Virus record (IMG/VR): IMGVR_UViG_2529292717_000013
Length of the DNA: 37,577 nucleotides
Source of the DNA: a virus
Taxonomy: Duplodnaviria > Heunggongvirae > Uroviricota > Caudoviricetes
Strand: one strand, 5' to 3'
Shown: piece by piece, positions 10,620 through 32,689 of the stretch
How positions within the stretch are numbered: the first letter of the stretch is position 1
How the letters are laid out: the number at the start of each line of letters is the position of its first letter
Position numbers and translations under genes: made by a program
Notes under the pieces: model-generated
What the model saw: only the letters and a program-made list of their open reading frames with translations
Told to the model about the DNA's origin: nothing
Database searches by the model: none

Positions 10620-10627
10620 TATTTTTG

Positions 10628-14670: not shown

Positions 14671-15507
14671 ATGGCTAATGAAAAAAAGACATCCCGCAAA
14701 AAGTTTCGCGTGGCTGTCTCCGGATCAACTGTTGATGGCCGTGAAATCAGTCCGGTGCATCTGCGTGAAGCCGCCGAGAACTTCAACCCGGATGTTTACG
14801 CTGCCCGCGTGAACGTTGAGCACTATCTCTCGCCATGCCCGTCAAGCGAATTTTCCGCAATGGGCGATGTCACCGCACTGAGTACGGAAGACATTACGGA
14901 AGGTCCGCTGGCCGGACGTACTGCGCTGTATGCAGAAATCGAACCGACCGAGCGCATGAAGCAGCTTGTCGCGGACGGCAAGAAAATCTATTCCAGTATC
15001 GAACTGCACCCGCAGTTCTCCGTTAACGGGCGCGCCTATCTGGTCGGGCTGGCGATGACCGACACCCCGGCAAGCCTGGGCACTGAGCGCCTGAAATTCA
15101 CGGCACAGCAACGTCAGGCGGTGATGACGTTCAACAGTGTCCAGGGTGAAGCACCGCTCATTTCCGAAGCCATCGAGTCTGAAATCATCGAAATGGCAGA
15201 ACAACGCCAGGAAGAAGGCACCCAGTGGTTTAACCGCGTAATGGGGATTATTGGTCGTGGCCGCAAAGCGGATGACGCCAGTTTCTCCCGTATTCAGGAA
15301 GCGGTGGAAGGCGTCGCAACGTCACAGGCCGACATTATCGACCGTTTTAATGTGCTGGAAACCCGCCATCAGCAGGACCGCCAGAAAATCACGTCACTGA
15401 CCACAGAGCTGACAGCACTGAAGGAAAAACTGCGCACGCAGGACGGCGATCCGCAGAACCGCTTCACCGCAACGGGCGCAGCCTCCGACCAGCTGGCTGA
15501 CTTCTGA
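14671..15507 (+). CDS. O: capsid scaffolding protein
   Basis: Start at the internal ATG 14671 (MANEKKTSRKKFRVAVSG...) after a GAGGGG RBS; P2 gpO-like. Confidence 0.8.
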   Translation: MANEKKTSRKKFRVAVSGSTVDGREISPVHLREAAENFNPDVYAARVNVEHYLSPCPSSEFSAMGDVTALSTEDITEGPLAGRTALYAEIEPTERMKQLVADGKKIYSSIELHPQFSVNGRAYLVGLAMTDTPASLGTERLKFTAQQRQAVMTFNSVQGEAPLISEAIESEIIEMAEQRQEEGTQWFNRVMGIIGRGRKADDASFSRIQEAVEGVATSQADIIDRFNVLETRHQQDRQKITSLTTELTALKEKLRTQDGDPQNRFTATGAASDQLADF

Positions 15508-15529
15508 TAAGACAAAGGAGCAAATTTTT

Positions 15530-16582
15530 ATGAATCTGGTGATGTCAGATATTACCCGCAACAAGCTGGGTTGCTATATGGCGCAGCAGGCGTCGCTTAA
15601 CAATATCCCGGTATCTGCACTGGTATCGCGATTTACCGTGGAACCCTCGGTGCAGCAGCGTTTTGAAAACGCAGTAAAGGAGAGCACTGAATTTACAAAA
15701 AAAATTAACGTGTTCGGTGTGACTGACCAGAAAGGCGAAAAAATCCTCCTGGACACCACCGGGCCGATTGCGCGCACGAATACCAGTTATGACGGCACAA
15801 AACGCCGTAACCCGAATAACGTGGTTGATCTGAAAAACCGCAAATACCAGTGCGAACAGGTGAACTACGACACGTTTATTTCGTATCCGCAGCTTGATGC
15901 CTGGGCGGCACACCCTGATTTTCAGTCCCGCGTCAGCACACAGATTGCCCGGCAGGTGGCGCTTGACCGCATCATGATCGGTTTCAACGGCACGTCTCAC
16001 GCGGATGAGTCCAACTTCAGCACTAACAAGCTGCTTCAGGACGTTAACGTGGGATGGCTGGAGCACATCAGAACCGACGCCAGCGAGCGCGTTATGAATG
16101 ATGTAACGCTGACCTCCCGCAACATGGACAACACCGTGGCGCACGCGGGTAAATATGCGAACGCTGATGCACTGGTACAGGACGCGCGCTCATCCCTGCT
16201 GGATGAATGGCACAAGGAAGCTGACGACCTCGTGGTGATTATGGGGCGCAACCTGTTTAACTCGCTGCGTCTGCCCGTGCTGAACAGCATCAGCGGCCAG
16301 AATCCCAATGCGGAATTACTTGCCGGACAGCTCATCCTGTCATCGCGCGCCATTGGCGGGCTGGATGTATTCCTTGCGCCGTTCTTCCCGGATGCAACGA
16401 TGCTGATCACCTCGTTCAACAACCTGTCAATTTACTGGCAGAAAGGAACAATGCGTCGCCTGATGAAAGACGAGCCGGAATACAACCGCATCGCCACCTA
16501 CCAGTCCATCAATGACGCTTATGTCGTTGAAGACTATGGCAAGTGCGCGATGGTCACTGGCCTGAAGTTCGCCGACAGCTAA
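15530..16582 (+). CDS. N: major capsid protein
   Basis: 350 aa; P2 gpN-like. Confidence 0.9.
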   Translation: MNLVMSDITRNKLGCYMAQQASLNNIPVSALVSRFTVEPSVQQRFENAVKESTEFTKKINVFGVTDQKGEKILLDTTGPIARTNTSYDGTKRRNPNNVVDLKNRKYQCEQVNYDTFISYPQLDAWAAHPDFQSRVSTQIARQVALDRIMIGFNGTSHADESNFSTNKLLQDVNVGWLEHIRTDASERVMNDVTLTSRNMDNTVAHAGKYANADALVQDARSSLLDEWHKEADDLVVIMGRNLFNSLRLPVLNSISGQNPNAELLAGQLILSSRAIGGLDVFLAPFFPDATMLITSFNNLSIYWQKGTMRRLMKDEPEYNRIATYQSINDAYVVEDYGKCAMVTGLKFADS

Positions 16583-16627
16583 TCACCTCACGGCGGGCAT
16601 CATGCCCGCCTGTAACGGAGAGAAAAA

Positions 16628-17422
16628 ATGATTACTCCTGCACAGCAACACTGGCAGAACGTGATGGCACAGCGCGCAGGCCGGGCGAATGAAGGCGTGG
16701 ACCATGCCGCGCGTACCGCGCATGAAGAGGTGCTGTATCGTCTGCGTCTGGCACAGGCCCGGCTTAAGGGCGTACAGGCCAGAAGCGCGAAAGCCGCCAT
16801 CAAAAAAGAGTTATTGCCGGACTTTTCCGGCTGGATTGAGGGAACGCTGGAGGCTGACGGCGGGCAGCAGGATGAAGTGATTGCCACGCTGATGGTGTGG
16901 GCGATTGACTGCGGCGATCTTCCGCTTGCGCTGCGTATTGGTGCTATGTGGTCCGTCACAACCTCATCATGCCGGATAACTTTGGACGTACTGCTGCCAC
17001 GGTACTGACCGAAGAAATCTGTAATCCGGTACTGACGCAGGCCGGGACGGATGCCGACGCGGATTTGTCCGCCTTTATCGAACCACTGGACACCCTCCGG
17101 GAGATTGTCACCGACCAGGACATGCCGGACGAAGTGCGCGCCAAATTATGCAAGCGTGCGCCTTTGCCCGCCGTGGCCTGAGATGCGGACAGCATGGCCT
17201 TCACTGAAGCTGCTGCGCGAAGCGATGCACCTGAACCCGAACGCAGGTGTGAAACGCGAGATTGCAACCCTTTCCCGCGCCCTGAAAAAAGCCGATTCCG
17301 CAGCCGCACCAGAAGATGCCAGCACACCGCAGGCGCAGGACGAAAGCAGCAAAAGTAAAAAGACAACGCGGAAGCCTGCAACACGAAAAACCACCGCGAC
17401 GCAGAAGGCGAAGCGCGGTTAA
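16628..17422 (+). pseudogene. M: terminase small (endonuclease) subunit; two frame changes at about 16945 and about 17178
   Basis: Three track ORFs (16628..17008, 16948..17181, 17051..17422) in frames 2/1/2 each match consecutive segments of gpM, including MPDEVRAKL and AGVKREI. Confidence 0.8.
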
Positions 17423-17525
17423 CGACTGACCCCGTCAGCGGGCGGCGTGCGCGGTGTTCCGGTTTGACTCCGTGACCGTTTACACCGCGCACCCACCGCC
17501 CGATTTTTTTCAGGAGTGAACCCCC

Positions 17526-18020
17526 ATGAGTATGGTTGCCAGAACTGAACCAAGACCCGCAGAGGACGACATCACCGATACCGATGATGGTGATACCCGT
17601 ATTTCAGCGGGTGCATTCTGGCCGGATATTGTGCTGCGTGAGCTGCGTCTGGCGATACGACTGCCGGGCCGTGTGACCACCTCCCGCCTGCTGCATACCG
17701 CCACCGGGGCAGTGGCACACGTTACCCGCGAGCTGGAAGCGTGGCAGCAGGAACAGCAGGCGGCTGGCCATCAGACGCTGGCCGATGTTCCGGCACCCGT
17801 AATTAACGGAGAAAGCGTCAATCTCTGGCACTGGCGCAATGCGGTTTACACCGCCACACGCGCCCTGATTCTGGAGCGTTACCGCGATGCGGACACAACG
17901 GACAAGGGCGACCGCCGGGCGGACGCACTGGATATACAGACATCGGATTTGTGGCGCGATGTGAGCTGGGCCATCTCTGACATTCTGTGCCGCCCGCGAA
18001 TCTTTGCGGAGTTGTGCTGA
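17526..18020 (+). CDS. L: head completion/stabilisation protein
   Basis: 164 aa; P2 gpL-like. Confidence 0.85.
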   Translation: MSMVARTEPRPAEDDITDTDDGDTRISAGAFWPDIVLRELRLAIRLPGRVTTSRLLHTATGAVAHVTRELEAWQQEQQAAGHQTLADVPAPVINGESVNLWHWRNAVYTATRALILERYRDADTTDKGDRRADALDIQTSDLWRDVSWAISDILCRPRIFAELC

Positions 18021-18220
18021 TGAAAGTGAAGGCACTGGAAGGCGACACCGTGGATTCGCTCTGTTTCCGGTACTACGGCACGACGCAGGGCGTCACCGAA
18101 AAGGTGCTGGATGCCAACCCCGGACTCTGTCAGCAGGTATTTCTGGACGCCGGGCAGGAAGTGGAGATGCCGGAGCCGGAGAAGAAGAAACGAGAAATGA
18201 TTCAGTTGTGGGGGGAGTAG
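18020..18220 (+). CDS. X: tail protein X
   Basis: 66 aa from the ATG at 18020 (MKVKALEGDTVDSLCFRYYG); P2 gpX-like. Confidence 0.75.
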   Translation: MKVKALEGDTVDSLCFRYYGTTQGVTEKVLDANPGLCQQVFLDAGQEVEMPEPEKKKREMIQLWGE

Positions 18221-18222
18221 CA

Positions 18223-18546
18223 GTGAGCACCATTCAAACAGGGATCACAGAGCAGGTTATTGCGTGGCTCTTTGACCACCTGCCAACGGTGTATGCAGTA
18301 GGCGCGGCGGTCAGCATTTCCGCGCTGATGAGTCTTTATGACGGACGAACACTGGTTCAGACCGTAACGGGATCGCTGGCGTGCGGCGTTCTTGCCATGG
18401 CCGTGGCCGGGTCGTTGCGCTTCTTCGGGTTTCCTGAAGATGCCGTGACGTTTATCGGCGCATCAATCGGTTTTATGGGTGCAGAGAAAGCACGCGACAA
18501 GGTTATTGCGGCCTTTAATCGCAGGGTGAAGGAGAAAGACGAATGA
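18223..18546 (+). CDS. holin (class I, lambda S-like)
   Basis: 107 aa from a GTG after a G-rich RBS; three hydrophobic segments and a C-terminal basic tail resembling lambda S. Confidence 0.55.
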   Translation: MSTIQTGITEQVIAWLFDHLPTVYAVGAAVSISALMSLYDGRTLVQTVTGSLACGVLAMAVAGSLRFFGFPEDAVTFIGASIGFMGAEKARDKVIAAFNRRVKEKDE

Positions 18547-18935
18547 GCAACACATTTAAATTCAGCAGCCGGAGCGAAAAGAATTTGCAGGGCGTAAATC
18601 CTGATCTGGTGAAAGTGACCCGACGAGCACTGGAAATCTCGGAAGTGGATTTTGGTATCACCGAAGGGTTGCGCAGCCGTTACCGCCAGAAGCAACTTGT
18701 GGCCACAGGTAAGAGCCAGACCATGAACAGCCGCCACCTTACGGGACATGCCGTGGATGTTGTGGCTTATATCGGCAGCCAGGTGTCATGGGAATGGCCG
18801 CTGTACGAAAAAATCGCAGCAGCATTCAGACAGGCCAGCCGGGAACTGAATATTCCGGTGGAATGGGGCGGCGACTGGAAGACCCTGAAAGACGGACCGC
18901 ATTTTCAGTTACCACACGGAGCCTATCCGGCATGA
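18543..18935 (+). CDS. endolysin, peptidase M15 family (L-Ala-D-Glu / D-Ala-D-Ala peptidase type)
   Basis: 130 aa; SRHLTGHAVDV ... H motif pattern typical of M15 zinc peptidases. Confidence 0.75.
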   Translation: MSNTFKFSSRSEKNLQGVNPDLVKVTRRALEISEVDFGITEGLRSRYRQKQLVATGKSQTMNSRHLTGHAVDVVAYIGSQVSWEWPLYEKIAAAFRQASRELNIPVEWGGDWKTLKDGPHFQLPHGAYPA

Positions 18936-19339
18936 AGCTCTGGCCCACGCTTGGCGTCGCTTTCCTTCTGATTGCCGCATGGGGAACATCCATGCGTCTG
19001 TCGTGGTCGCTGGGCCGGGAGAACGCCAGAAACGAAGCGCAGGCCAGCACCCTGAAAAGTACCGCCGACACCCTGAATATCATCAGCACCGGGGTACAGG
19101 ATATGCAGCAGGTGCTGGCGCAACTCCGCGTGGAAAATCAGCAACGCAATCAGGACGGAGAAGCCAGACGTGAACAGCTACGCAACGATATTGCAAAAGA
19201 TGAATGCGCCCACGCTTTGCCTGACGCTCGTTTTACTGACAGGTTGCGCAGGCACGCAGAACGCGCCACTGCCAGCGCCGTCAGTCCGGCTTATACCGCA
19301 GACGCTGACCATACCGGTAACGCCTCCCCCCTTCCCTGA
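18932..19339 (+). CDS. i-spanin (Rz/LysB-like)
   Basis: ATG at 18932 (ATGA overlap with the endolysin); N-terminal TM helix MKLWPTLGVAFLLIAAWG, then a coiled-coil-like region. Confidence 0.6.
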   Translation: MKLWPTLGVAFLLIAAWGTSMRLSWSLGRENARNEAQASTLKSTADTLNIISTGVQDMQQVLAQLRVENQQRNQDGEARREQLRNDIAKDECAHALPDARFTDRLRRHAERATASAVSPAYTADADHTGNASPLP

Positions 19340-19490
19340 CACTCCCACATGGGGAAATCTCGGTATATGGGGCGACCGCCTTCTGGATGCACTGGAAACC
19401 TGTAACGCGGATAAACGGGCCATTGAATTACTGGAACAGCGCAGGCTGCAACGACTGAACAACGAGGACAACAACCATGCTGAAAACTGA
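19200..19490 (+). CDS. o-spanin lipoprotein (Rz1/LysC-like)
   Basis: Starts inside the i-spanin in another frame; lipobox LLTGC after a signal sequence. Confidence 0.6.
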   Translation: MNAPTLCLTLVLLTGCAGTQNAPLPAPSVRLIPQTLTIPVTPPPFPDTPTWGNLGIWGDRLLDALETCNADKRAIELLEQRRLQRLNNEDNNHAEN

Positions 19491-19942
19491 TTCCCTGCGT
19501 GAAGCCATGACCCGTTCATGCCGATGGTGTCAGGCCAACCCGGAAAAATTCACCATTTTCGTGGAGAGCGGCAACATTGAAACGACCGGAGAAACGCCCT
19601 CGTTTGTTTAACGCTATCAGATGGTGATGTTTGTCATGGATTACGCCGGGGAGCTGGACGACCTCACGCTGCCGCTACTGGCGTGGTTATCCGAAAATCA
19701 GCCACAGTTGTTGCTCAATCCGGAGCGTAATCAGGACATCAAATTCTCCGCCGTTATCAATGACGATGACAGCGCCGATCTCCTGTTTACGCTCCCTCTG
19801 CGGGAACGCGTTCGCATACGCGCACAGTCAGGGGACACCGCAGGCAGAACACCTGCCGGAGCCAAAACCCCGTCTGCCATCTTCCGAAGGCGACTGGTCG
19901 CATGTATTCCAGGATGTGACGTGGGGTGAAAGCGATGGATAA
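19477..19942 (+). pseudogene. R: tail completion protein R; in-frame TAA at 19609-19611 plus a frame change near 19830-19860
   Basis: MLKTDSLR... N-terminus like gpR; the stop aligns with a K/E position of homologues; the C-terminal HLPEPKPRLPSSEG is in another frame. Confidence 0.7.
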
Positions 19943-20570
19943 GGCATTCACCCGCGTGGATGAAACCTTTGAGGCTATCCGCGACAGCCTGAATCAGCAG
20001 GCCATCAATAACATCGCCAGAAAGCTGGCACAGGATTTACGTCGCGCCCAGCAGGCACGTATCCGGTCACAGAAAGCGCCGGACGGGACTGCATGGACAC
20101 CACGCAGACGCCGCGTAACCCGGATACAGGAGCGTATTCGCTTTATCTGGAATAACGAAGCACGCACGCTGAAAAACTGGCATCACGACACGGGGAAATA
20201 CGGGCGAACCATCACCGGGTGGGATGAGGATAAAAACAGCATCCGCACGTTTTACCGGGATGACATCGACCGCTTTCTGGAAATACGCACCCGGCGCATC
20301 AACCAGGACAGCACAAAGCGCGTCCCCATGTTCGTAAAACTGCGCACCGCCCGCTACCTGAAAGCCCGTGCAGATGCTTCCGGTGTGACGGTGGGTTACA
20401 GCGGCGTGGCCGCACGTATTGCACGCGTTCATCAGTTCGGTGAGCGCGATCAGGTTGCGCCGGGCATTTTCACCGATTACCCGGTACGTGAGCTGTTGGG
20501 CATCAGTCAGGCAGATGAACGCCTGATTTATAACACGGTGCTGGGCCGGATTGCGGAGGCTGTACGGTGA
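19926..20570 (+). CDS. S: virion morphogenesis / tail completion protein S family
   Basis: 214 aa; N-terminal ARKLAQDLRRAQQARIRSQKAPDGTAWTP and C-terminal HQFGERD pattern of the gpS family; longer than canonical gpS. Confidence 0.65.
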   Translation: MKAMDKAFTRVDETFEAIRDSLNQQAINNIARKLAQDLRRAQQARIRSQKAPDGTAWTPRRRRVTRIQERIRFIWNNEARTLKNWHHDTGKYGRTITGWDEDKNSIRTFYRDDIDRFLEIRTRRINQDSTKRVPMFVKLRTARYLKARADASGVTVGYSGVAARIARVHQFGERDQVAPGIFTDYPVRELLGISQADERLIYNTVLGRIAEAVR

Positions 20571-21289
20571 GCGCAGAACTCATGCGACTGCTGAGCAATA
20601 TCATCCGCACCGGGATCATCTCTGAAGTTGATGAGAAGTCCTGGCGCGTGCGCGTTCGCAGCGGCGAACTGGAAACAGGCTGGTTGCGCTGGAACACCAC
20701 GCGCGCGGGAGCCTTCAATGTGTGGCTGCCGCCATCACCAGGCGAACAGGTGGTAATTGCCTGCATTGGCGGCAACCCGGAAACCGCCATGATAATTGGC
20801 AGCCTGTGGAGTGATGCCAGTCCGGCACCCGGCAAAAGCCTGAAAGAAATCGTGATCAGCGCGCCGGACGGCGCGGTGTTCCGCTACGACGCGGACGCAG
20901 GCGCACTGAGCGCCAGCGGCATGAAAACGGCCACTTTACAGGCATCCGTCAGCGTGAAACTGGATACGCCCGTCGTGGAATGCACAAACCTTCTGAGAAC
21001 GGCGACGCTTGACGTCACAAAAGGAGGAAAGATGAGCGGCAATATCACGCACAGCGGCGGCAACTTCACCTCAAACGGCATTACCGTGCATACGCATAAA
21101 CACGGTGGCGTGAAAGGCGGCGCGATTCGACAGGAGGCCCGCAGTGACAACCCGCTACACAGGAATGAATCCGGACGGAACGGGAAACCTGAACGATATG
21201 GAGCACCTGAAACAGTCAGTCAGGGACATCCTGACCACCCCGCTGGCAAGCCGGGTTATGCGACGGGAATATGGCAGCCTTGTGCCTGA
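20567..21289 (+). CDS. V: baseplate assembly protein V (spike); 3' end probably frame-shifted, true stop likely about 21147
   Basis: GNPETAMIIGSLWS and THKHGG motifs; the last ~45 codons of the observed ORF read through the W start and look non-protein-like. Confidence 0.8.
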   Translation: MSAELMRLLSNIIRTGIISEVDEKSWRVRVRSGELETGWLRWNTTRAGAFNVWLPPSPGEQVVIACIGGNPETAMIIGSLWSDASPAPGKSLKEIVISAPDGAVFRYDADAGALSASGMKTATLQASVSVKLDTPVVECTNLLRTATLDVTKGGKMSGNITHSGGNFTSNGITVHTHKHGGVKGGAIRQEARSDNPLHRNESGRNGKPERYGAPETVSQGHPDHPAGKPGYATGIWQPCA

Positions 21290-21493
21290 TTTGATTGACG
21301 AACCCATGAATAACACCACGCGTCTGCAATGCATGAGTGCTGCCGTGATTGCGCTGACACGATGGGAACCCCGCATTGCCCTGGATGCCATCGACGTTGT
21401 CTGGAAAGCGGGAGGCCGCGCCGGGGTGACCTGTCGGGCACTGTCATGCAGACCATGCAGAATGTTGAGTTAACCATCACGCTAAGGGAGTAA
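21144..21493 (+). CDS. W: baseplate protein W (gp25-like); frame change at a G-run near 21435
   Basis: MTTRYTGMNPDG...RVMRREYGS...WEPR typical of gpW; the conserved C-terminus DLSGTVMQTMQNVELTITLRE is in the adjacent frame, ending at 21493. Confidence 0.8.
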
Positions 21494-21496
21494 ATC

Positions 21497-22380
21497 ATGC
21501 CCGCCGTTGACCTTTCACAGTTACCGGACCCCGCCATCATCGCGGAGCCTGACTTTGAGGCAATTCTGGCTGACACAAAGGCCATGATGATTGCGGCTTA
21601 TCCCGCCGAACAGCGTGAAGCCGTTTCCGCCGCGCTGGAGCTGGAATCGGAACCCCTTAACGTTATCGCTCAAACCATGTCGTTTCGTGAAATGCTGTTA
21701 CGCCAGCGGGTTAACGAGGGTGCACGCGCCTGCATGTTAAGCCACAGCGCCGGGACAGACCTGGACAACCTCGCGGGCAATATGAACACAAAGCGCCTGG
21801 TTATCACTCCGGCAACGGATACCACCGACGCGGTGATGGAAGCGACACCTCGCTGAGACTGCGGGCGCAACGGGCGTAGACGGCCTGAGGTTGCTGGCCC
21901 GTCAGGGCATACGAGTATTTTGCCCGCAGCGCCAGCGGTCTGGTGCGTGATGCGCGGGCTATCAGTCCGTCTCCGGCAAATGTGACGGTTTCCATCCTGT
22001 CCACTGAAGGCGACGGCACGCAACGGAGGCGTTGCTTAATACCGTTCGCGCCGTTCTGAATGCAGAGGATACCCGCCCGGTGGCCGACCGCCTGACCGTA
22101 CAGAGTGCCAGAATCGTGACATGGCGGCTGAATGCAAAACTGTACTTTTACCCCGGCCCGGAATCCGAACCTATTCTGGCTGCGGCGGAATCGTCGTTCA
22201 GGAAGTGGCTGGCTGAGCAGGGGCTTATCGGTCAGGACGTGGCGTTGTCGCCATTGCTGCCGCACTGCATGTGCACGGTGTGCAACGCGTGGAGATAATC
22301 GAACCCACACAAATATGGCCATCAGCGACATACAGGCGGCGCGCTGTGAGTCTTCACCATCAGCGAAGGTGGGCGAATGA
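21497..22380 (+). pseudogene. J: baseplate protein J; at least five frame changes
   Basis: gpJ-like segments are found successively in frames 2, 1, 2, 1, 0, 2, 1 (for example MPAVDLSQLPDP..., RAYEYFARSASG..., LNAEDTRPVADRLTVQ..., ALHVHGVQRVE...). Confidence 0.8.
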
Positions 22381-22904
22381 GTAATTCACTGTTACCGCCA
22401 TCAGCCAGCATTTCATGCGTTGTGCCGAAGCTGTCGGAACCGCATTACAGACATCCCGGTAGACCTCAACACCTGTGGTCGCCGGATACCTGCCCGGTGC
22501 ATCTGCTGCCTTATCTCGCCTGGGCATTTTCCGTTGACCGCTGGGATCGCAACTGGCCGGAAGAGACAAAGCGACAGGTGATTCGTGATGCATGGCTGAT
22601 ACACCGACACAAGGGAACCATCAGCGCACTGCGCCGGGCCATTGAACCACTGGGATACCTCATTCGCGTGTCTGAGTGGTGGGAGTTCGGCGGAGAACCG
22701 GGAACATTTACCGTTGAAGTCGGCACGCTGGACAGTGGCGTGACGGAGGAAATGTATCTGGAAATGGAGCGGTTGATTGCTGATGCCCGCCCGGTCAGCC
22801 GCCACATGACAGGGCTGAATATCATTCAGGAGATCCCGGGAGATATTTTCGCGGCGGCAGCAACTTACGACGGCGAAGTCATTACCATTTATCCAGACGA
22901 TTAA
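22377..22904 (+). CDS. I: baseplate/tail-fibre attachment protein I
   Basis: 175 aa; NPDTCP..LLPYLAWAFSVDRWD...GYLI..EWWE pattern like P2 gpI. Confidence 0.85.
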   Translation: MSNSLLPPSASISCVVPKLSEPHYRHPGRPQHLWSPDTCPVHLLPYLAWAFSVDRWDRNWPEETKRQVIRDAWLIHRHKGTISALRRAIEPLGYLIRVSEWWEFGGEPGTFTVEVGTLDSGVTEEMYLEMERLIADARPVSRHMTGLNIIQEIPGDIFAAAATYDGEVITIYPDD

Positions 22905-22906
22905 GT

Positions 22907-25077
22907 ATGAGTACCACAACACGAAAATTTAAAACCGTTATCACCAATACGGGTGCAAAAAAATTAGCTCAGGCAGCCGCGCCAGATGGTAAGCCTGTCC
23001 GCCTGACTCATATGGCCGTGGGCGACGGTGGCGGCACGTTGCCCACACCAGACAGTAAGCAGACCCGTCTGGTGCATGAGGTGTGGCGACACACGTTAAT
23101 CGCGTCATCCTGGACGCAACACATCAGAACCGCATTATTGCGGAGCTGGTTATTCCTCCTGAAACGGGCGGATTCTGGATCCGGGAAATTGGTGTATTTG
23201 ATGAGCACGGCGATTTAATCGCGGTGGGCAATACTGCCGAAAGTTACAAACCAACCGTTGCCGAAGGGTCCGGACGTACACAAACATTTCGCACCATTCT
23301 GACCGTATCCAGCACTGCCACCGTGGCGCTTACCGTGGATAACACCATGGTGATGGCCACAGTGGATTACGTGGATGACAAACTGAAAGAGCATGAACAG
23401 TCACGACGTCACCCGGATGCCTCGCTGACCGCAAAAGGCTTTGTTCAACTCAGTAGCGCCACTAACAGCGATTCTGAAACGCTGGCTGCAACGCCGAAAG
23501 CGGTTAAGGCCGCGTATGACCTGGCTAACGGAAAATATACCGCTCAGGACGCCACGACGGCACGAAAAGGGATAGTCCAGCTCAGCAGTGCAACCAACAG
23601 CACGTCTGAAACGCTGGCAGCGACACCAAAAGCTGTTAAGGCGGTAATGGATGAAACGAACAAGAAAGCGCCCTTAAACAGTCCTGCGCTGACCGGAACA
23701 CCAACAACACCAACTGCGCCAAAAGGTACTAATAATACTCAGATCGCAAGTACGGCTTATGTGATGGCCGCGATTGCCGCCCTTGTAGACTCGTCGCCTG
23801 ACGCACTGAATACGCTGAACGAGTTAGCGGCGGCGCTGGGCAACGACCCGAATTTTGCGACCACCATGACTAACGCGCTTGCGGGTAAGCAACCGAAAGA
23901 TGCCACCCTGACGGCGCTGGCCGGGCTTGCTACTGCGGCAGACAGGTTTCCGTATTTTACGGGGAATGATGTCGCCAGCTTGGCAACCCTGACAAAAGTT
24001 GGGCGGGATATTCTTGCGAAATCGACCGTTGCCGCCGTTATCGAATACCTCGGTTTACAGGAAACGGTAAACAAGGCTGGTAACGCCGTTCAGCGTTCCG
24101 GCGATAAAATGACCGGAGAACTGAAAATTGGCACGATGAATGCGCTGCGAATTTTTAATGATGCCTTCGGTCTTATTTTCCGTCGTTCAGAAGAGTACCT
24201 TCATTTCATCCCTACGGCTGAAGGACAAGGCGAAAACGGTGATATCGGCCCATTAAGGCCATTCGCTATAAATCTGAGAACAGGTGCTATATCTGTCAGC
24301 CACGGGGCCAAAATTGATGGTGGGCTGGCGCTTGGTACAGATAACGCACTGGGCGGTAATTCCATTACTCTCGGAGATAACGACACTGGTATTAAACAGG
24401 GCGGCGACGGTGTCCTTTTATTCTATTCAAATGGACAACTGGCATTTGGGCTTCAACCCGCATCTGCTGATTTTTATAAGCGGGTTGCATATATTCATCA
24501 GGGAATAATTCCTGATGGAAGTGGCGCATTTGCAGACCAGTTGAATAATGCCACCGCGCCTTTTGTTCAGACGCAGTTTGCCTGGAATCCCACTCCTGGT
24601 GGTCATTACGTGCCGATAGTTAAGGGCTTGTCCATTCGCAATGGACAGGGCTATCCCGGCGCGGTCAGCTTTGGGTATTTACTGACAGAACAGTATGGAT
24701 TTCCGGTTCCATGTATTCATATGCGTGGCGATGGCGGTAATGATGCTTTATGGCAGTTTAACCCGAACGATAAATCCTTTATTTCACCGGGTGCTCTTAT
24801 TGCGGGTGGCGTCCATTATAACACCGATGGAAATATATTTGGTGGGTGCTGGGGTTCAAACTTAAATGATTACCTGAATAGTTCTTTTATCAGAAATGTG
24901 CGTCTGGGAGGCAGACGTTCTGACGTATTATATCGCGGAGGACTTTGCGAACCAGGTAATGGTCATGTGACAACAGGATTGCAAATTATTGGTGAGGTTG
25001 ATGGAGATGACTGGATGGTGTCACGACCACTACAAAAATACATTTATGGTAACTGGTATAACGTTGAACAGGCATAG
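22907..25077 (+). CDS. H: tail fibre protein H; one frame change near 23097 separates the N-terminal about 60 codons
   Basis: N-terminus MSTTTRKFKTVITNTGAKKLA...HEVWRH then IIAELVIPPE in the next frame; two copies of the tail-fibre repeat SSATNS(D/T)SETLAATPKAVKA. Confidence 0.85.
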
Positions 25078-25092
25078 CCATCAGGAGAATAT

Positions 25093-25620
25093 ATGCAACA
25101 TCTGAAAAATATTACCGCCGGAAACCCCAAAACCATTGAGCAGTATCAGCTTACGAAAAAAGCTGGCGTTATCTGGCTATATACAGAAGACGGTAAAAAC
25201 TGGTATGACGAATTAAAAAACTTTCAGGATGATACTTTAAAAATAGCTTATGACCAGAAGGGGATTATTCGTTGTATTGAGAAAGACGTATCAATGCTTA
25301 ACCCTGACGGGTTAAGTGTTGTTGAGTTACCGAATATAACAGCCAACCGTCGCGCCGATATCTCGGGAAACTGGAAGTTTCTGGATGGTAAAGTAGTAAA
25401 GCGGGAATATACAAAACAGGAACTGCAACAGCAGGCAGAGTTACAAAAAGCCGCTTTGCTTTCCGAAGCGGAGTCTGTGATTCAACCGCTGGAACGTGCT
25501 GTCAGACTGAATATGGCAACTGATGAGGAACGCACACGACTGGAATCATGGGAACGCTACAGCGTTATGGTCAGCCGTGTGGATACTGCAAAGCCTGAAT
25601 GGCCACAGAAACCAAAATAA
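25093..25620 (+). CDS. G: tail fibre assembly protein (Tfa, gpG-like)
   Basis: 175 aa; C-terminal [29 protein letters not shown] pattern of Tfa proteins. Confidence 0.8.
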
Positions 25621-25631
25621 CAACAAATTAA

Positions 25632-25652
25632 GGCCCGTACGGGCCTTTTCTT
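25632..25652 (+). terminator. rho-independent terminator (GGCCCG-TA-CGGGCC + T-run)
   Basis: Directly after the tfa stop. Confidence 0.6.
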
Positions 25653-25683
25653 ATTCTGGTGGTTCCGGGAATGTTACAGGAAG

Positions 25684-25839
25684 AACCAAATAGCAAGGCT
25701 GATCAAAAACGGTCATGACAGGAAACAACTGGCGATCATTTACGACATCGGCATATCGACGATTTATCGTTATCACCCTGTAGGCGATATACAGGCTGAA
25801 GAAACAACCAGGCAGACTCAGGAAAATGAAAACCGCTAA
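25684..25839 (+). pseudogene. C-terminal remnant (about 50 codons) of a Hin/Gin/Cin-type serine DNA invertase
   Basis: Translation NQIARLIKNGHDRKQLAIIYDIGISTIYRYHPV matches the C-terminal HTH of Hin (EQISRLLEKGHPRQQLAIIFGIGVSTLYRYFPA, recalled); no N-terminal catalytic domain upstream. Confidence 0.6.
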
Positions 25840-25858
25840 TCTGACCATTAGCGGTTTT
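25831..25858. terminator. bidirectional terminator (AACCGCTAAT ... ATTAGCGGTT + T-run)
   Basis: Perfect 10-bp stem after the stop of minus-strand U. Confidence 0.5.
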
Positions 25859-25865
25859 GCGTTAA

Positions 25866-26360
25866 TCAAAACAGCCCTTTAACGGAGCTGGCCGCGCTGT
25901 TAAGGGATGATGTGACCTTATCTTTGAAGCCGGACAGCATATCACTGAACGATGAGGATTGCAGGCGCTCCCGCAAATCCTCATCACAGCGTTCAAGGGT
26001 CAGTGAAAATTCTATCTTTTTCGCCTTACCGTAGCGATCAAACTCGGAGCGGGTCGTATTCGTTTCAGTCAGTACATACATGCCGTAAATCTGCCCGACA
26101 CCATCAATCAGAGGCCAGGGGCGTCCTGTATATGCCTGCGTGGTCAGCAACGAAAGCGACACTTCGCCACCTGTAATTTCAGGATAAAGCACACCAGAAA
26201 GAACGATGCGATCATCACCTGCACCGATATACTGCCAGCTTGCTGAACGGTTAACGCGTTCATTTTTCACATGCCGCCAGCTTTTGTTTTGCTGTAACTG
26301 CTGATGCGGCAGCGTGCGCAGCTCAAAAACAAACATGCCGTAGATCATCATCATGACCAT
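25866..26360 (-). CDS. U: tail protein U
   Basis: 164 aa; FVFELRTLPHQ...WRHV...G.PWPLIDG pattern of P2 gpU. Confidence 0.85.
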   Translation of the reverse strand: MVMMMIYGMFVFELRTLPHQQLQQNKSWRHVKNERVNRSASWQYIGAGDDRIVLSGVLYPEITGGEVSLSLLTTQAYTGRPWPLIDGVGQIYGMYVLTETNTTRSEFDRYGKAKKIEFSLTLERCDEDLRERLQSSSFSDMLSGFKDKVTSSLNSAASSVKGLF

Positions 26361-26366
26361 GACTCC

Positions 26367-29201
26367 TCAATCTTTATCGTAAAAACTGCCACGCCCGGCA
26401 CGGGCGCGCCGTTCCATTTCTGCCCTGACCATTTCACCGACCAGTTTCGCCAGTTCGCGGGGATTCTGTGTAACAACGTTATGCAGATGAACATGAATTT
26501 CACCGCCAAATCCGGAGGCAACAGGCTCCCGGTTACGGGAAGTTGCAGGAACTGATGCCACTGGAGATCGTATGGCCTCTGCCACCGGGCGGGAGCTGGC
26601 CGCAACAACAGGGACCAGCGCCGGAGGCAGCGGAGCCGGAACCACGGGTGTGATATTAATTGCGGGGGCAGGCTTACTGACCTGCGCAATCTTCCGCTCC
26701 TGCCACTCCCCACGAACGGCAAGTGCGCGGGGCAGGTTCTTAAAGACAATATCGCCGGGGCCAATACGTTTTTTCGTCTCATCAACCAGCTTACCTGTGT
26801 TATCAGCAATTTTGCTGAGTCTGCGTAGCGTACCGGTATTGCTGTCTGTGAGTGGTTTGTTGTCTTTGGGTTTATCACCTCCGGTGCCATTGCCATTTTC
26901 CACAGGCTTCGGCGGATTGATTTTCGCCAGGTCTCCCTGAAACAGAGCAACCTTGTCCTGAAGAATGGCCGCACGCTGTGCGTCTTCGATTTTCTTGCTC
27001 GCCCTTTCAGCTTCATCCGGAAGGACGCCAAGTTTTTCAAGTATCCACGCCAGCGTATCCAGTAGCATTTTTGCAGGTGTCAGAACAAGCTGTAACGCAC
27101 CGCCAAGAACGTTACCGAATATCTCGCCAGCACTGGTACATTTATCCAGCGTTTCCTTGCTGGACTCCATCGGTGACAGCAGCGATTTAAACCAGTTAAA
27201 CACCTGACTTATCCCGCTTCCGATTGCGTCAAAAACAGGACCAAACCGTTCAAAGGTTTCGCGTAACGGGGCCAGCCGCTCCATAATCCCGCTGAACACC
27301 CCGGCATAAAACGCCTTGATGGGTTCCCAGTATTTCCAGATGAGAACCGCCGCAGCCACAAACGCAGCAGCAATCAATCCGACCGGGCTGAACAGCGCCC
27401 CGATAGCGCCCCCCAGTAACGAAACGGAACCCGTCACCATTCCCCATAGTGCTGGCAGGAGCCTGACAGCATTCATTGATCCGGTCAGGAGAGAAAAACC
27501 AAGACGCAACGTGGCCAGCTTCCCGTGAAGCACTCCAATAACCAGCGACAACGAGCCAACCGTTGCAGTCATTGCCAGCAGCGCACCGCCTGCTATCAGT
27601 AACTGGCGCGTCAGTACCGGATGGGCCTGTGCCAGCGCCGTCACCTTTGAGACCACCCGCGTGAGCCACTGCGTGACAGAACGCAGCGGACCATCAATCA
27701 GATCTGCAATGCGGATACGCAGCCCTTCCCATGCACTGCCGAGTGATTTCAGGTCGCCATCAAGGTTATTGGCCATAACCTTTGCCGTGCGTTCAGCCTC
27801 ACCGCGTGCGCCCTCAAGTTCTTTTCTCAGTTTGGGCAGGGAGCCGTCACCCGCCGCATCAACGAGAGCCATAAACGACGTGAAAGCCTCTTCCCCGGCA
27901 ATGTCCTTAAAGAACGATACCCGGTCAACTTCCCCGTATTTGCGGGTGGCTTTATAAAGGTCAGCCAGCAGATCTTCCATCGGGCGCATTTTGCCGTTCG
28001 CATCAGAGACGGACACACCCAGCTCTTTCAGCGCCTCTGCTGCTGCCTTTGGCGGTGATGCCAGACGAGCCAGGCTGGCACGCATTGCCGTCCCGGCATC
28101 ACTCCCTCTGATACCCATATTCGCCAGCACGCCGCCATCGCTGCGCCTGCTCCAGCGATATTCCCAGCTTACCCGCCACCGGACCGCATATTTCATGGTT
28201 TCGCCCAGTGCGCGAAGGTCAGTGTTGGTACGGGTAAACGCTGCAGTGAGTGTGTCACCGACCCGGTCCATCTGGTCAGCGAAGGCCGAACTGCGTCAGG
28301 ATATTTGAGCCAATATCGCCGTCTCGCCAGTCCATACCGCCAGCCGTTGCCATGCTCACACGCCGGGAAGCGCAGCCTGAATGGCCTGCGGTGTGAAGCC
28401 AGCCATTGCCAGAAATGCCTGCCCACTGGCGGCATCGCCTGCGGTGAACTGCGTTTCAGAGCCAAGTTTTAACGCCTGCTCACGCAGCGCCTTAAACTGC
28501 GGGCTGTTTTTGTCGATTCGCGTCAGTGCCTGAACGCGGGACATCTCTTTCCCGAACCCGATCGCAGGCTGCAAAAAACGCCCGGCAGCATAGCTGCCAG
28601 CCGCTGTCGCACCAATTGCCAGCGCACCACCTGTTTTCAGTTTTCCCGCTGTTTCCTGCGCACGCGAATACCGCTCACGCGCCCGCGTTACACGCGCAAG
28701 CGACTGCCGTTCGCGTTCAAGCTGGTTGTTGTACTGCTCGGTGCGTCTGATGGCCTGCTGGATGGTGTTATCGCTGCCTGTCAGGGAAATGCCGTGGCGT
28801 TTCAGCTCTCCGCCAAGCTCCCGCATTTTCTGAATTTCCCGTGTGCGCGATTCATTCAGGCGTTCAAGCCGGGTGCTTAACTGCTGCATCAGCTTTTGTT
28901 GCTTTTCGCTGAGCACTGTACCCGTGCGTTGTAACTGATTAAGGGCGTTAAGCTGGCGTCGTGCTTTCACGATACCCGCATCCGCTTTACTGACAGCGTC
29001 GCGGGCGCGCTCAAATGAACGCGCCTGACGCTCGAGATTTTTGATCGCCCCCTGCGTTCGCTGGATGGAGTCACCAAACTGCCCCATCAGGCGGCGGGCG
29101 TTTTCGGCAGGCCGGGTCAGCCTGTCAACGGCGCTGAAAGCGACCCGGATATCAAGAGTCTTCATTGTCTGCATTCCCGCTGCGAAGTGCCGCCCGCTCA
29201 C
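26367..29201 (-). pseudogene. T: tail tape-measure protein T; compensating pair of frame changes at about 28285-28355
   Basis: Track ORFs 28356..29201 and 26367..28271 are in the same frame; the conserved segment between them (VSMATAGGMDWRDGDIGSNILTQFGL) is in another frame. Confidence 0.85.
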
Positions 29202-29681
29202 GCCAGCTAACCACTTCGCCGGGCGTCATCATGAAGATTTCGGCGGGCGACCAGTTAAAAATAACGGCAATATCTGCCACAAAGTCTTCTATGTGCTCAA
29301 AGCACACAACCGTGATCAGGCTTCCGTCGCCTGTTCGTTCTTCCCGCCAGAGTCCGCACCGCTCAAAAAATTTACGGCAACCACACATAACTGAATAAAG
29401 TCACGGGATGCCATTTTTTTGATCGTCACTTCATCCAGTCGCGGTGATGTCACGCGTGACAGCAGCGTAAACATGGATTCCGCTTTCAGATTCAGCACAT
29501 CAGACAACGACAAATCTCGCAGAGATCCAGCCTGCTCAATAGCTCCGGTGATCTCCACATACGTGATTTTTTCGCCGCCTCGCTCAATTGGTTGGGTAAG
29601 TTTTACGCCACGCTCACTGGTTTCTTTCACAGTGTCAGCAACGACCGTGTTTTCGGTATCGATGTTTTTCGTCTCTTTCAT
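29152..29681 (-). CDS. E+E': E+E' tail assembly chaperone produced by programmed -1 frameshift
   Basis: The E' frame (track ORF 29152..29388) is -1 relative to E and continues as FFERCGLWREER...WRERAALRSG after the heptamer T TTT TTG. Confidence 0.65.
29316..29681 (-). CDS. E: tail assembly chaperone E
   Basis: 121-aa ORF between T and FII; contains the slippery site near its 3' end. Confidence 0.75.
   Translation of the reverse strand: MKETKNIDTENTVVADTVKETSERGVKLTQPIERGGEKITYVEITGAIEQAGSLRDLSLSDVLNLKAESMFTLLSRVTSPRLDEVTIKKMASRDFIQLCVVAVNFLSGADSGGKNEQATEA
29364..29370 (-). promoter_or_regulatory. programmed -1 ribosomal frameshift slippery heptamer T_TTT_TTG (E to E')
   Basis: Coordinates derived from the E and E' codon phases; X_XXY_YYZ pattern in the E frame. 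Confidence 0.6.
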
Positions 29682-29735
29682 CAGGAAACTCCTTTCAGTC
29701 AGAGGCGACGCACTGCGCCGCCTGCATATTACTTA

Positions 29736-30248
29736 TCAGCCAAGCCCAAGCGCGGAACGGATGCGATCGGGCACAATGTCCTTGCCGTCCTTCCGGTAAA
29801 TGAAGTTCAGCAGGTCAATCTCCCACAACGGACGATCGTTAACACTCAGCTTGTAGTAGGTGTTTTTAATGGCGTAAGTGTGTGATGTGGCTTCGCCCTG
29901 TTTGGCTTCCCCCATATCAATTTCTGTCACACGTCCGCGCATTTCGACTTCATACAGGTCGCTTTCTGCATCGGTGTAGTATTCACCCGCAAAACGCAGC
30001 AGCGTGCCGTCAATCGTGCCGCCATACTTCAGGAACAGCTCACGAACTGCGCCCCCCATGACAAAGCTCGCATCAAGCGCGGAGTCGTCCAGACCGAGAT
30101 CAATACTTACCGCACCCATCATGCCACCACCCCGGTAGCTGTCGGTTTTGCGCGTCAGCTTAGGCAGAGTGACGGACGTCACCTTACCCACTTCGTTTTC
30201 ACCATCCACAAACAGCGTAAAAAAGCGAAGATGTTTTGGCACAGCCAT
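29736..30248 (-). CDS. FII: tail tube protein FII
   Basis: 170 aa; MAVPKHLRFFTLFVDGENEVG...YRGGGMMGAVSIDLGLDD like P2 FII. Confidence 0.85.
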   Translation of the reverse strand: MAVPKHLRFFTLFVDGENEVGKVTSVTLPKLTRKTDSYRGGGMMGAVSIDLGLDDSALDASFVMGGAVRELFLKYGGTIDGTLLRFAGEYYTDAESDLYEVEMRGRVTEIDMGEAKQGEATSHTYAIKNTYYKLSVNDRPLWEIDLLNFIYRKDGKDIVPDRIRSALGLG

Positions 30249-31429
30249 CAGGCACCTCCCAGCACCGCAAATGCAGGTTCAAAGTATTCATCAGTAAACG
30301 TCTGGTAAAGCTCCATGTCTTCCAGTGGCGGAACAGGCGTATATTTGTAGCGAATACGCACACGCCCCTGACGTAAATCCGTGGTGCTGTTATCCACCAC
30401 GTCATACCAGCACTCCGCGCCAATCAGTTTCCCGGCAGTAACCAGTGAATCCAGTTTTGCCCTGATGGCACTGATAACATCCTTCACGTTCGCAGGCGTC
30501 AGTGGACTGTCGATGGTTTCAAACTGCGCTTCTGCAATTGAATCAGCCAGCACCTGTGCGGTTCGGGTATACACCTCAAAGATGTAGGCGTTCGTTTCCG
30601 GTGTGCGGTTGCCCCAGAAGCGGAACCCGTTGCGACGAATAATGGTCGTGATTTCTTTGTTGTTGAGGCTGTTGGCATCGCTGTCTTCGGCCTGCAACGA
30701 CCAGAACACATGCCTCGACATCCCCAGCACATTTTTAACCGGAACGTTGGACAGCGATTTGTGCCAGCCCTGCTCATGGTCAATGTACGCACGAAGGCCG
30801 CACGCATAAGCAGGCGCGGGGAACGTTTCGTTTTCGCCACTTTTCGGGTTGTAGGCGATGAAGTCCGGCCATAAGAGCATCACCTCACGTTCGTTGAATT
30901 TCTGGCGGTAGGTAATCGCTTCAGCCATCGTGTTACAGCCGTGACATGAGGCATACACAAATGCGCGCAGTTTACCCGCAATCACGCACAGGGATTTTGT
31001 CACCGCCTCCGTGTCCAGCTCCGGCGCGGCCAGAATACGCGGACGGTATCCGATGCTTTCATCCTGCTCTGCAACAAGCAGCGCATACATCCCCGTATAG
31101 CTGCCGTCATCCTCAGAACCACCGATAACCAGTTGATCCTGCGTTTTCGTCTTCTTCTTTGTGTTCAGCCACGCGAACGACGATCACCTTTGTGCTCACC
31201 TGGTCTGCGATGGCCTTAAGCGCACGATAAAGCGTCCCCGTTGTCCGCATTTTCCCAGCACGTCATTGACGCGGGTCAGCAGTGTGGGCTTGTTCAGCGG
31301 GAACAGCTTCGCGTCCGCATCATCCGCCGTTGCCACGATACCGATAACGCTGGAATCAACATCGTTAATCGCTGTTACCAGGTCGGTATTTTCCGTAACA
31401 CGGGCACCATGAAAACGAGTTTCACTCAT
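30248..31429 (-). pseudogene. FI: tail sheath protein FI; compensating pair of frame changes at about 31140-31245
   Basis: Track ORFs 31196..31429 and 30248..31090 are in the same frame; the conserved middle segment (TLYRALKAIADQVSTKVIVVRVAEHKEEDENA) is in another frame. Confidence 0.85.
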
Positions 31430-31585
31430 AGCTTCAGCCCCTTGTATCCGTTAAATGATTCGGCAACAATCATCACCCACCACGCGCGTAATCTCACCCC
31501 TGCGCCGTTCTCCCGCCACGGCGACAACAAAAAGCAGTACCCCCCTCCGCACGCACATGCGACCATGCCGCACAGGGAGGGAAAG

Positions 31586-32689
31586 ATGACCGACACCACC
31601 ATGCAATTGCTCAGTCAGGGCACAGACCCCGTGAAAATGCCGGATTTTGATATTCTCGCCGAGGGTAAAACGCTGTCCGGCGTGGCAGAACGCCTGATGA
31701 GCCTGTCACTGACCGACAACCGGGGATTTGAGGCGGACCAGCTCACCATCACGCTGGATGATGCCGATGGCCAGTTGCAGCTACCGCCACGGGGCGCGCG
31801 TCTGACGGTTCTCATTGGCTGGAAAGGAGAACCGCTGACAGAAAAAGGCACTTACATTGTTGATGAAATCGCTCACGAAGGACCGCCGGACAGGCTGACT
31901 GTTTCAGCCAGAAGCGCAGATTTTCGGGATGAATTTAACGTTAAACGTGAGGTGTCCTGGCATGATGTGACCGTTGAGCGTGTGGTATCCGCCATCGCTC
32001 ATCGGTACGGTCTGAAACCGCAAATCAGCGAAATGCTGATGGATATCGAAATCGACCACGCCGACCAGACCGAAGAAAGCGACATGTCCTTCTTACGCGC
32101 ATGGCGGAAATGCTGGGCGCAATCACCACGGTAAAAAGCGGAATCTGTTATTCATATGCCGGCGGTGGCGTGAACGCACAGGGCCAGCCGTTGCCATCGT
32201 TCGCCATCACCGCAGCAGGGCGATCGCCATCAGTTCCGCATTGCTGACCGCGAAGCGTATACGGGGGTACGCGCTTACTGGCTTGATCTTAATTACGGGA
32301 AAAAGAAAAAAGTCAGCGTGAAACGCCGCAAACCGCCAAAACCCAAAAAGGAGAAAAGCAGCAGCCGTGAAGGTGATTATATGGAAGGCGCGGAAGGAAA
32401 TGTGTTTGTGTTACGCAAGACTTATCAGAACGAGCAGGCAGCAAGACGCGCAGCGGCGGCAAAGTGGCAGCAGCTACAACGCGGAGCCGCATCATTCTCC
32501 ATCACACTGGCACGTGGACGAGCAGAACTCTACCCCGAAATGCATGGCACGGTAACAGGATTTAAAAGCGAGATTGATAATCAGGACTGGATTATTGCAA
32601 AAGCCGGGCACACCATTGATAACAGCGGCTTTACCACGCAGCTTGAGCTTGAGGCAAAAATCCCGGAATGGATAGCGGAAACAGAGTGA
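31586..32689 (+). pseudogene. D: tail protein D (late control gene D family); compensating pair of frame changes at about 32095-32225
   Basis: Start at the ATG after a GGGAGGG RBS (MTDTTMQLLSQG...); conserved segments in frames 2, 1, 2; C-terminal part is track ORF 32318..32689. Confidence 0.8.

Follow-up and report, generated by a model that had tools for sequence, protein, structure and literature searches.

The closest described relatives of the prophage analyzed here are the P88-like prophages (Xuanwuvirus, P2-like Peduoviridae), which share its gene order and 96-98.5% of their nucleotides across the replication and late regions, and which occupy both the yecA/tRNA-Leu and the pdxB-flk loci in other genomes. 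In these relatives, the genes M, V, W, J, I, H, T, FI, and D are intact, whereas in the window (the whole stretch of 37,577 nucleotides that was analyzed), they are broken, and only by bases that have dropped out of the sequence. The defective prophage found at the yecA locus in the CS7 ETEC lineage (E2980 and ETEC-2264) is closer still, being identical over the left half, including a TAA codon in gene R, but it differs from the window in carrying an IS100 element beside T and in having no frameshifts.

A different type of precedent is provided by the consensus errors that arise at collapsed repeats or heterozygous sites, in which near-identical copies are merged and the errors are confined to the columns at which the copies differ. 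As in the present case, the flanks of such a contig may come from different loci, and sister assemblies show breaks or errors at the repeat concerned. The present case is unlike these errors in that a base is dropped, rather than an allele being chosen or an ambiguity code written, which mimics frameshifted pseudogenes. The frameshifts in the window are, very probably, an artefact of this type in a draft assembly, derived from two collapsed prophage copies rather than from gene decay. This reading is based on the coincidence of the dropped bases with polymorphic columns, the host flanks from two loci, the runs of consecutive sites, a discordant sister assembly, and the clean control stretches.

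Genomic context and host flanks

The window corresponds to contig AQDF01000042.1 of the draft genome of the enterotoxigenic Escherichia coli strain 2867750, which was assembled from 100-bp Illumina HiSeq reads (SRR446803) using the Celera Assembler (PMC5469772); SPAdes v3.6 was likewise used by the authors. The truncated products have the NCBI records EMV59254.1 and EMV59278.1 [Escherichia coli 2867750], and the gaps therefore belong to the deposited record itself. For the same reason, it is unlikely that ambiguity codes were stripped by the scanning pipeline, and the contig copy, written in the letters A, C, G, and T alone, does not differ from the window. The main divisions of the contig are:

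1..33400, no strand assigned: composite P2-like (P88-like, Xuanwuvirus) prophage from the integrase to ogr/hok, a probable consensus of two copies
990..5000, no strand assigned: left arm, matching the prophage at the yecA locus in E2980 and ETEC-2264 (100% identity, 0 gaps, 4011 bp)
7300..16900, no strand assigned: stretch of pure copy-1 (yecA-locus) type, an internal negative control, in comparison with the relatives L005 and L007
33400..37577, no strand assigned: right host flank with the RES cassette, a zinc-ribbon gene, TagO, and flk, from the other attachment locus (pdxB-flk)

The prophage matches phage P88 with 92% coverage and 97.3% identity, and its late genes are collinear with those of P2 (Q P O N M L X Y K lysB R S V W J I H G / U T E FII FI / D ogr), in agreement with both P88 and the E. 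coli prophages. The left host flank (ftnA-tyrP-yecA-int) represents the yecA attachment site at yecA/tRNA-Leu, while the order on the right is ogr-hok-RES-TagO-flk-yfcJ-fabB-mnmC. In ETEC-2264, the yecA-locus prophage lies approximately 430 kb from flk, in direct orientation, with pgsA, accD, folC, and the nuo genes located between the two loci. As the flanks come from two distant loci, the contig would therefore represent the collapsed consensus of two P2-like prophages.

Three portions of the contig provide clean controls against the complete genomes of the lineage. No drop-outs were found within the left arm (990..5000), the stretch at 7300..16900 is 99.98% identical to L005/L007 (2 mismatches, 0 gaps, 9601 bp), and the host flank is 99.95% identical to ETEC-2264 (3 mismatches, 0 gaps over 5937 bp). 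The first two of these portions (990-5000 and 7300-16900), which together make up approximately 13.6 kb of the left half, thus match the yecA-locus prophage of E2980/ETEC-2264 at 99.98-100% identity, and the three portions taken together amount to some 19.5 kb of unambiguous contig sequence that is free of indels (4011, 9601, and 5937 bp). A search for the second copy in the complete genomes of the lineage found no prophage at the flk locus of ETEC-2264, and the right arm found its best matches in genomes other than E2980 and ETEC-2264. The second copy was represented by proxies that are approximate only (CH4804 as L018, CYAN01000063 as L010, and FDAARGOS_1370 as L003), and L003, L010, and L018 differ by 7-50 mismatches per kb in places.

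Inventory of the dropped bases

Comparison by blastn with phage P88 and 7-17 relatives identified 41 deletion events private to the window, which remove 47 bases. Every private indel event (n = 41) is a deletion of 1-2 nt. The affected positions are:

5502..5514, plus strand: 1-nt drop-outs at one C/T and one A/T polymorphic column of the small ORF that precedes A
7203..7254, plus strand: drop-outs of 2 and 1 nt in the replication gene A (net -3), where the patch at ~5000-7250 has its right edge
16945..17201, plus strand: block in M (terminase small subunit), of 1, 1, 2, and 2 nt (6 bases in total)
19818..19825, plus strand: 1-nt drop-outs at one C/T and one G/A SNP column of R
21122, plus strand: one base lost close to the 3' end of V (A/G SNP column)
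21431, plus strand: one base lost close to the 3' end of W (G/A SNP column)
21841..22020, plus strand: first J block, with 5 consecutive sites of difference between L005 and L003, all dropped
22249..22473, plus strand: second block, with 4 sites in the last part of J and 3 in the first part of I
23095, plus strand: single drop-out in the tail-fibre gene H, at a column that is invariant (T) in 12/12 of the relatives available
28134..28359, minus strand: block of 7 events in the tape-measure gene T, removing 9 bases
31144..31245, minus strand: drop-outs of 2 and 1 nt in the sheath gene FI, at C/T SNP columns
31584, plus strand: drop-out in the FI-D spacer, between the ribosome-binding site and the D ATG (31586), at an A/G polymorphic position
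32092..32219, plus strand: block of six 1-nt events in D, at sites of difference between L010 (flk-locus type) and L005 (yecA-locus type)

The events and bases lost are distributed among the ORF upstream of A (2/2), A (2/3), M (4/6), R (2/2), V (1/1), W (1/1), J (9/9), I (3/3), H (1/1), T (7/9), FI (2/3), the FI-D spacer (1/1), and D (6/6). The drop-outs at 5502..5514 sit inside a patch that is not of the copy-1 type (~5000-7250), near the left end. Gene A is split into ORFs at 5814-7223 and 7323-8633, and T into ORFs at 26367-28271 and 28356-29201. The alleles around 19818..19825 in R switch from the L003 type to the L005 type.

The original prediction, made from the sequence of this stretch, had described M, T, FI, D, and A as genes in which the outer segments share a frame, and the losses do sum to a multiple of 3 in each of the five. 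Its description of R as carrying an in-frame TAA (19609-19611) together with a shift (net -2) was equally accurate. The list of intact genes holds for Q, P, O, N, L, X, FII, and ogr, in which there are no indels relative to P88, but not for I, which has lost 1 nt at each of the positions 22410, 22441, and 22473; these losses sum to -3 and leave the ORF open, with approximately 21 codons scrambled.

The supposed excess of compensating pairs proved to be fragile. The losses sum to a multiple of 3 in seven of the nine multi-base sets when these are defined by gene (p = 0.008, post hoc), and in five of nine when they are defined by physical block (p = 0.14), so the result depends on how the sets are defined. 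Under the collapse model, only chance accounts for the excess by gene. Functional compensation is ruled out, given that stop codons interrupt every affected gene except I.

Coincidence with polymorphic columns

The dropped bases coincide with the columns that are polymorphic among the relatives. In a comparison with up to 16 relatives, 39 of the 47 fall on such columns, and most of the others adjoin one. With 3-6 relatives, a strict count placed 31 of 46 dropped columns on polymorphic positions, against a background of 5.6% (P = 4e-28), while a count that takes runs into account placed 36 of 46, against 8.6% (P = 8e-30). In the coding sequence, 28 of the 46 drop-outs fall on codon position 3 (P = 1e-4). 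In M, all the drop-outs are on SNP columns (A/G, A/G, CC/GT, and CA/TG). In A, position 7254 is a C/A SNP site and the two bases at 7203 are non-polymorphic in the five relatives available, and these two bases, with the one at 23095, are the three that match no SNP in the relatives sampled.

The sites at which L005 and L003 differ across J and I occur, in order, as 12 resolved, 5 dropped, 4 resolved, and 7 dropped, and within each run, the sites are either all of one allele or all dropped, with the second block (22249..22473) containing all seven of the last run. The best match among the complete genomes over 21480-22520 (H39) shows 12 gaps and no substitutions. The clustering that had seemed puzzling in the original prediction may thus be explained by drop-outs that form runs of consecutive inter-copy SNP sites, in blocks of no more than 257 bp.

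The references were extended with unrelated complete genomes, found through the S protein, and no deletion of the window was present in the approximately 1000 complete E. coli genomes that contain the region. Programmed ribosomal frameshifting finds no support, given that the ORFs of the relatives are uninterrupted at all the drop-out sites, and the only conserved recoding site is the normal E/E' pair of P2.

A contig of a sister strain assembled with the same pipeline (AQDH01000093.1, strain 2866550, reads SRR446798) has drop-outs at positions equivalent to 32008, 32092, 32142, and 32156. Three of the six drop-outs in D of the window are common to this contig, in which 32008 is private and the bases of the L005 type are kept at the other three sites. 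The contig itself begins within D.

Proposed origin of the drop-outs

In the proposed mechanism, two directly oriented P2-like prophages, some 97-100% identical, one at yecA/tRNA-Leu and the other at pdxB-flk, would have been merged into a single chimeric consensus that tracks one copy or the other over most of its length. In short blocks (of up to 257 bp), the sequence of both copies would have been stacked, presumably at two-fold depth and with biallelic columns, and the consensus caller would emit no base at each column on which the copies disagree. The software step was plausibly a tie, or a mismatch converted into a pair of gaps, during the consensus refinement of Celera, the behavior of this consensus step at tied columns being the background to the proposal. 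Bases dropped at inter-copy SNPs, mostly in third codon positions, would therefore read as clustered frameshifts. Some blocks, the first in J among them, lie away from the allele switches, and a simple overlap of two unitigs does not account for these.

Alternative explanations

The decay of a recently inactivated, cryptic P2-like prophage, in which the indels would be real and some of the frameshifts compensating, was one of the two options offered in the original prediction, and it is highly improbable, finding support in none of the frameshifts and only in the inherited TAA codon in R. In favor of decay are this codon, the IS100 that adjoins T in E2980 and ETEC-2264 of the same lineage, which makes it plausible that the prophage is already defective, and the multiple-of-3 sums in seven of the nine genes with more than one dropped base. 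However, random loss would not bring 39-44 of the 47 missing bases onto SNP columns (P~1e-28), nor would it produce deletions only while leaving ~19.5 kb untouched in the same contig. The deletions are also absent from all the other genomes compared, the drop-outs of the sister strain form a different subset at similar sites, the contig fuses loci that lie 430 kb from each other and enclose essential genes, and the supposedly compensated genes remain cut by stop codons. The other option, a technical error, was right in spirit, but the mechanism appears to be drop-outs in a two-copy consensus rather than homopolymer error. The placement of the shifts at homopolymers was mostly mistaken: only 3 of the 47 dropped bases lie in runs of at least 3, the run lengths are mostly 1, and the changes are deletions only, while the length differences at the homopolymers 17504 and 17521 are intergenic polymorphisms seen in complete genomes as well. 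Ordinary base-calling errors, whether random or of the homopolymer type, in a low-quality stretch with no second copy involved, are thus extremely unlikely, despite the draft nature of this short-read assembly, which dates from 2013, and the clustering of the errors. Consensus indels are rare in high-depth Illumina data (a sister study from the same center reports a depth of >200x, a figure that does not refer to the 2867750 assembly; PMC4462620), the positions fall on natural SNP columns, and the blocks have no surplus of substitutions (0 over 21480-22520 relative to H39), which also argues against a low-quality stretch of reads.

The same artefact might have arisen from heterogeneity of another kind, such as a mixed culture, a contaminating strain, or a single polymorphic prophage, given that any 1:1 mixture of alleles would yield identical drop-outs. 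This is very unlikely, however, because the flanks of the contig represent two distinct and known P2 attachment loci, the two-type pattern recurs in strain 2866550, and the unique host flank has no drop-outs and just 3 mismatches to ETEC-2264 over 5.9 kb, which makes a mixed backbone improbable. A genuine hybrid prophage, produced when the two copies recombined, with the deletions resulting from mutagenic processing at former heteroduplex mismatches, is barely credible, as it would need either the loss of 430 kb, which would be lethal, or a rearrangement that has escaped notice, in addition to independent and differing events in the sister strain. The collapse of two prophage copies during assembly thus remains the preferred reading.

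Implications for the annotation of prophages

Artefactual frameshifts deposited in GenBank (e.g., EMV59254.1 and EMV59278.1) would be scored as pseudogenes, and both prophage-completeness tools and pseudogene surveys would derive a "defective prophage" from them. The signature should be easily screened in older drafts with several related prophages, by searching for deletions of only 1-2 nt that lie off homopolymers, on inter-copy SNP columns, and in blocks of approximately 250 bp or less.

The nonsense codon in gene R

19609..19611, plus strand: TAC>TAA nonsense codon at codon 45 of the tail gene R, with the same stop in L005 and L007

This TAA is a genuine, inherited lesion, and the sole one among the disruptions seen. 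In biological terms, it belongs to the yecA-locus prophage of this ETEC lineage. The stop is annotated as an "internal stop" in both L005 and L007.

Identity and origin of the sequence

The window comprises a P2-like prophage flanked by host DNA. Among phage records, Escherichia phage P88 (Xuanwuvirus) is the closest (97.3% identity and 92% coverage over 14000–33000), and its annotation has the same gene order. The same late region is found in approximately 1000 complete E. coli genomes, none of which exceeds 99% identity over the 19 kb tested. The truncated A fragment that results from the frameshift is encoded by only one contig in the searched collection, AQDF01000042.1 (79,727 bp; NCBI GCA_000354815.2), the copy of which matches the window exactly and has no letters other than A, C, G, and T. 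In NCBI, EMV59254.1 and EMV59278.1 (Escherichia coli 2867750) represent the truncated A and J products, and the gaps are therefore present in the deposited record itself. Strain 2867750 is a CS7 ETEC from Bangladesh (AQDF00000000, reads SRR446803; Table S1, PMC5469772), sequenced as 100-bp HiSeq 2000 reads and assembled with the Celera Assembler (methods, PMC5469772).

Distribution of the missing bases

Alignment with P88 recovered 54 indels (blastn), and nearly all of those in the conserved replication and late regions are deletions of 1–2 nt in the window. Comparison with 7–17 relatives defined a window-private set of 47 bases missing in 41 events.

Table. Window-private missing bases (drop-outs) by location.
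ORF upstream of A: 2 events, 2 bases
A: 2 events, 3 bases
M: 4 events, 6 bases
R: 2 events, 2 bases
V: 1 event, 1 base
W: 1 event, 1 base
J: 9 events, 9 bases
I: 3 events, 3 bases
H: 1 event, 1 base
T: 7 events, 9 bases
FI: 2 events, 3 bases
FI–D spacer: 1 event, 1 base
D: 6 events, 6 bases

The clustered frame disruptions of the original prediction were largely correct, and its description agrees with this list, except for the state of I and the siting at homopolymers. I, which was described as intact, has three drop-outs (sum −3), and its ORF stays open, while homopolymer runs of at least three nucleotides hold only 3 of the 47 dropped bases. Both homopolymer differences, at 17504 and 17521, are intergenic; at least the second is common to complete genomes, and the window has no indel at either position relative to the yecA-locus prophage of E2980. 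D also has an in-frame 9-nt insertion at 32336.

When the multi-base sums are taken by gene, seven of nine sets are divisible by three (p = 0.008, post hoc), whereas by physical block (sums of 2, 3, 6, 2, 5, 7, 9, 3, and 6) this is true of five of nine (p = 0.14), with the split between J (9) and I (3) arising from one five-site and one seven-site block. Stops still cut all the affected genes except I. The proposed excess of compensating pairs is thus not robust, and the multiples of three are treated as chance.

Coincidence with allelic differences

The frame disruptions are an assembly artefact, and not a biological feature. Compared with three to six relatives, 31 of 46 dropped columns are polymorphic under strict placement, and 36 when gaps may slide within a run, against a background polymorphism of 5.6% and 8.6%, respectively (P = 4e-28 and 8e-30). 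Widening the comparison to up to 16 relatives gives 39 polymorphic columns of 47, and most of the rest adjoin a SNP column in the raw alignments; among the relatives sampled, a known nearby SNP is absent only for the two bases at 7203 and the one at 23095. Two-base drop-outs correspond to adjacent SNPs (CC/GT at 17182, for example), and 28 of the 46 coding drop-outs affect the third position of a codon (P = 1e-4), where synonymous differences between phage alleles would be expected. None of the relatives compared shares a deletion with the window. The 21480–22520 interval has 12 gaps and no substitutions relative to the best-matching complete genome, and is therefore not a low-quality stretch.

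The drop-outs are also arranged in runs. The sites in J–I that separate the E2980 type from that of FDAARGOS_1370, an approximate proxy for a second prophage copy, behave as a unit within each run, which is either resolved to a single allele or dropped entirely: 12 resolved, five dropped (21841–22020), four resolved, seven dropped (22249–22473), and then resolved. Every physical block spans at most 257 bp, a size in keeping with 100-bp reads taken from inserts of approximately 300 bp.

Two attachment loci in one contig

The left flank of AQDF01000042.1 reads yecR-ftnA-tyrP-yecA-int, and the window matches the yecA/tRNA-Leu prophage of the complete ETEC genomes E2980 and ETEC-2264 with 100% identity over 990–5000 and 99.98% over 7300–16900, without gaps. 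Beyond approximately 18.5 kb, the consensus is a mosaic that no single relative matches. The right flank reads ogr-hok-RES-zinc ribbon-TagO-flk-yfcJ-fabB-mnmC, exactly where other genomes hold a second P2-like prophage, and its flk–mnmC portion is 99.95% identical to ETEC-2264, without gaps. The yecA-locus prophage of ETEC-2264 ends on the right at ~2.159 Mb, approximately 430 kb from flk (2.589 Mb) and in the same orientation, and a real junction would imply the deletion of this interval, which contains pgsA, the nuo genes, accD, and folC. Given that pgsA, accD, and folC belong to the essential genes of E. coli K-12, the contig is interpreted as chimeric through a collapsed two-copy repeat.

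Taken together, the comparisons show that the drop-outs are limited to differences between co-assembled copies, in short blocks of a chimeric short-read overlap-layout-consensus contig. Within these blocks, the sequences of both prophage copies would have been layered together, and the consensus step may then have removed the tied columns or, alternatively, converted mismatches into gap/base pairs that were subsequently called as gaps. The reading of sequencing or assembly error was thus right in kind, but not in mechanism, given that bases were dropped where the copies differ, rather than through homopolymer-type error. The decay of a cryptic prophage, by contrast, is unsupported as a source of the frameshifts. 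Contig AQDH01000093.1 of strain 2866550, from the same study and pipeline, begins within D and extends into the flk flank; its D lacks bases at 32008, 32092, 32142, and 32156, and at 32159/61, 32211, and 32219 it is of the E2980 type. At 32008, the window carries the base of CYAN01000063.1 (flk-locus type), and six of its bases are missing within 32092–32219; all seven sites are differences between the flk- and yecA-locus types. A consensus artefact predicts such overlapping but differing subsets, which inherited mutations would not yield. In practice, the drop-outs as a whole are of use mainly as a recognizable signature of such an artefact.

The nonsense codon in R

The in-frame TAA reported in R is present (TAC>TAA at 19609–19611, codon 45) and is a real lesion, common to E2980 and ETEC-2264, where R is annotated with an internal stop. 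As R is a P2 tail-completion gene, the prophage at yecA in this CS7 ETEC lineage can probably no longer make tails and is likely to be defective already. Both genomes also have an IS100 between U and T.

Additional features

1008–1313, − strand: DUF2511/YebY-like protein
1384–2034, − strand: 216-aa protein
19976–20519: substitution patch in S
26934–27894: substitution patch in T
29152–29681, − strand: E (121 aa) and overlapping GpE-family ORF (51 aa)
33412–34884: RES cassette (~1.5 kb), bracketed by a 78-nt inverted repeat (33412–33489/34807–34884, 96% complementary)
33733–34566: RES-domain gene (Pfam RES, E = 4.5e-12)

The two integrase-adjacent cargo genes span 1008–2034. The 216-aa protein, a "membrane protein" in the E2980 annotation, matches Pfam Flk_N, the domain of the host flk (36582–37577), in the precomputed table of the collection, a match not reproduced in our own Pfam scan at E ≤ 0.01. 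The E and GpE-family ORFs are a normal P2 tail-chaperone pair with programmed −1 frameshift readthrough, conserved in all relatives and outside the artefact. The S and T patches consist of substitutions that none of the first seven relatives has, and they resemble natural recombination patches derived from an allele outside the sample; the S protein is unchanged and identical to a widespread one (2209 blocks of the collection), and many of the T substitutions have multiple-of-three spacing.

No Xre-type antitoxin ORF of at least 50 aa was found upstream of the RES gene. FDAARGOS_1370 lacks the cassette between hok and the zinc-ribbon gene, whereas W284 and CH4804 have it. In CYAN01000063.1, from another draft assembly, a 1-nt gap of its own, matching window position 33959, splits the RES gene into ORFs of 80 and 192 aa, which indicates that draft-specific indels here extend beyond the AQD* assemblies.
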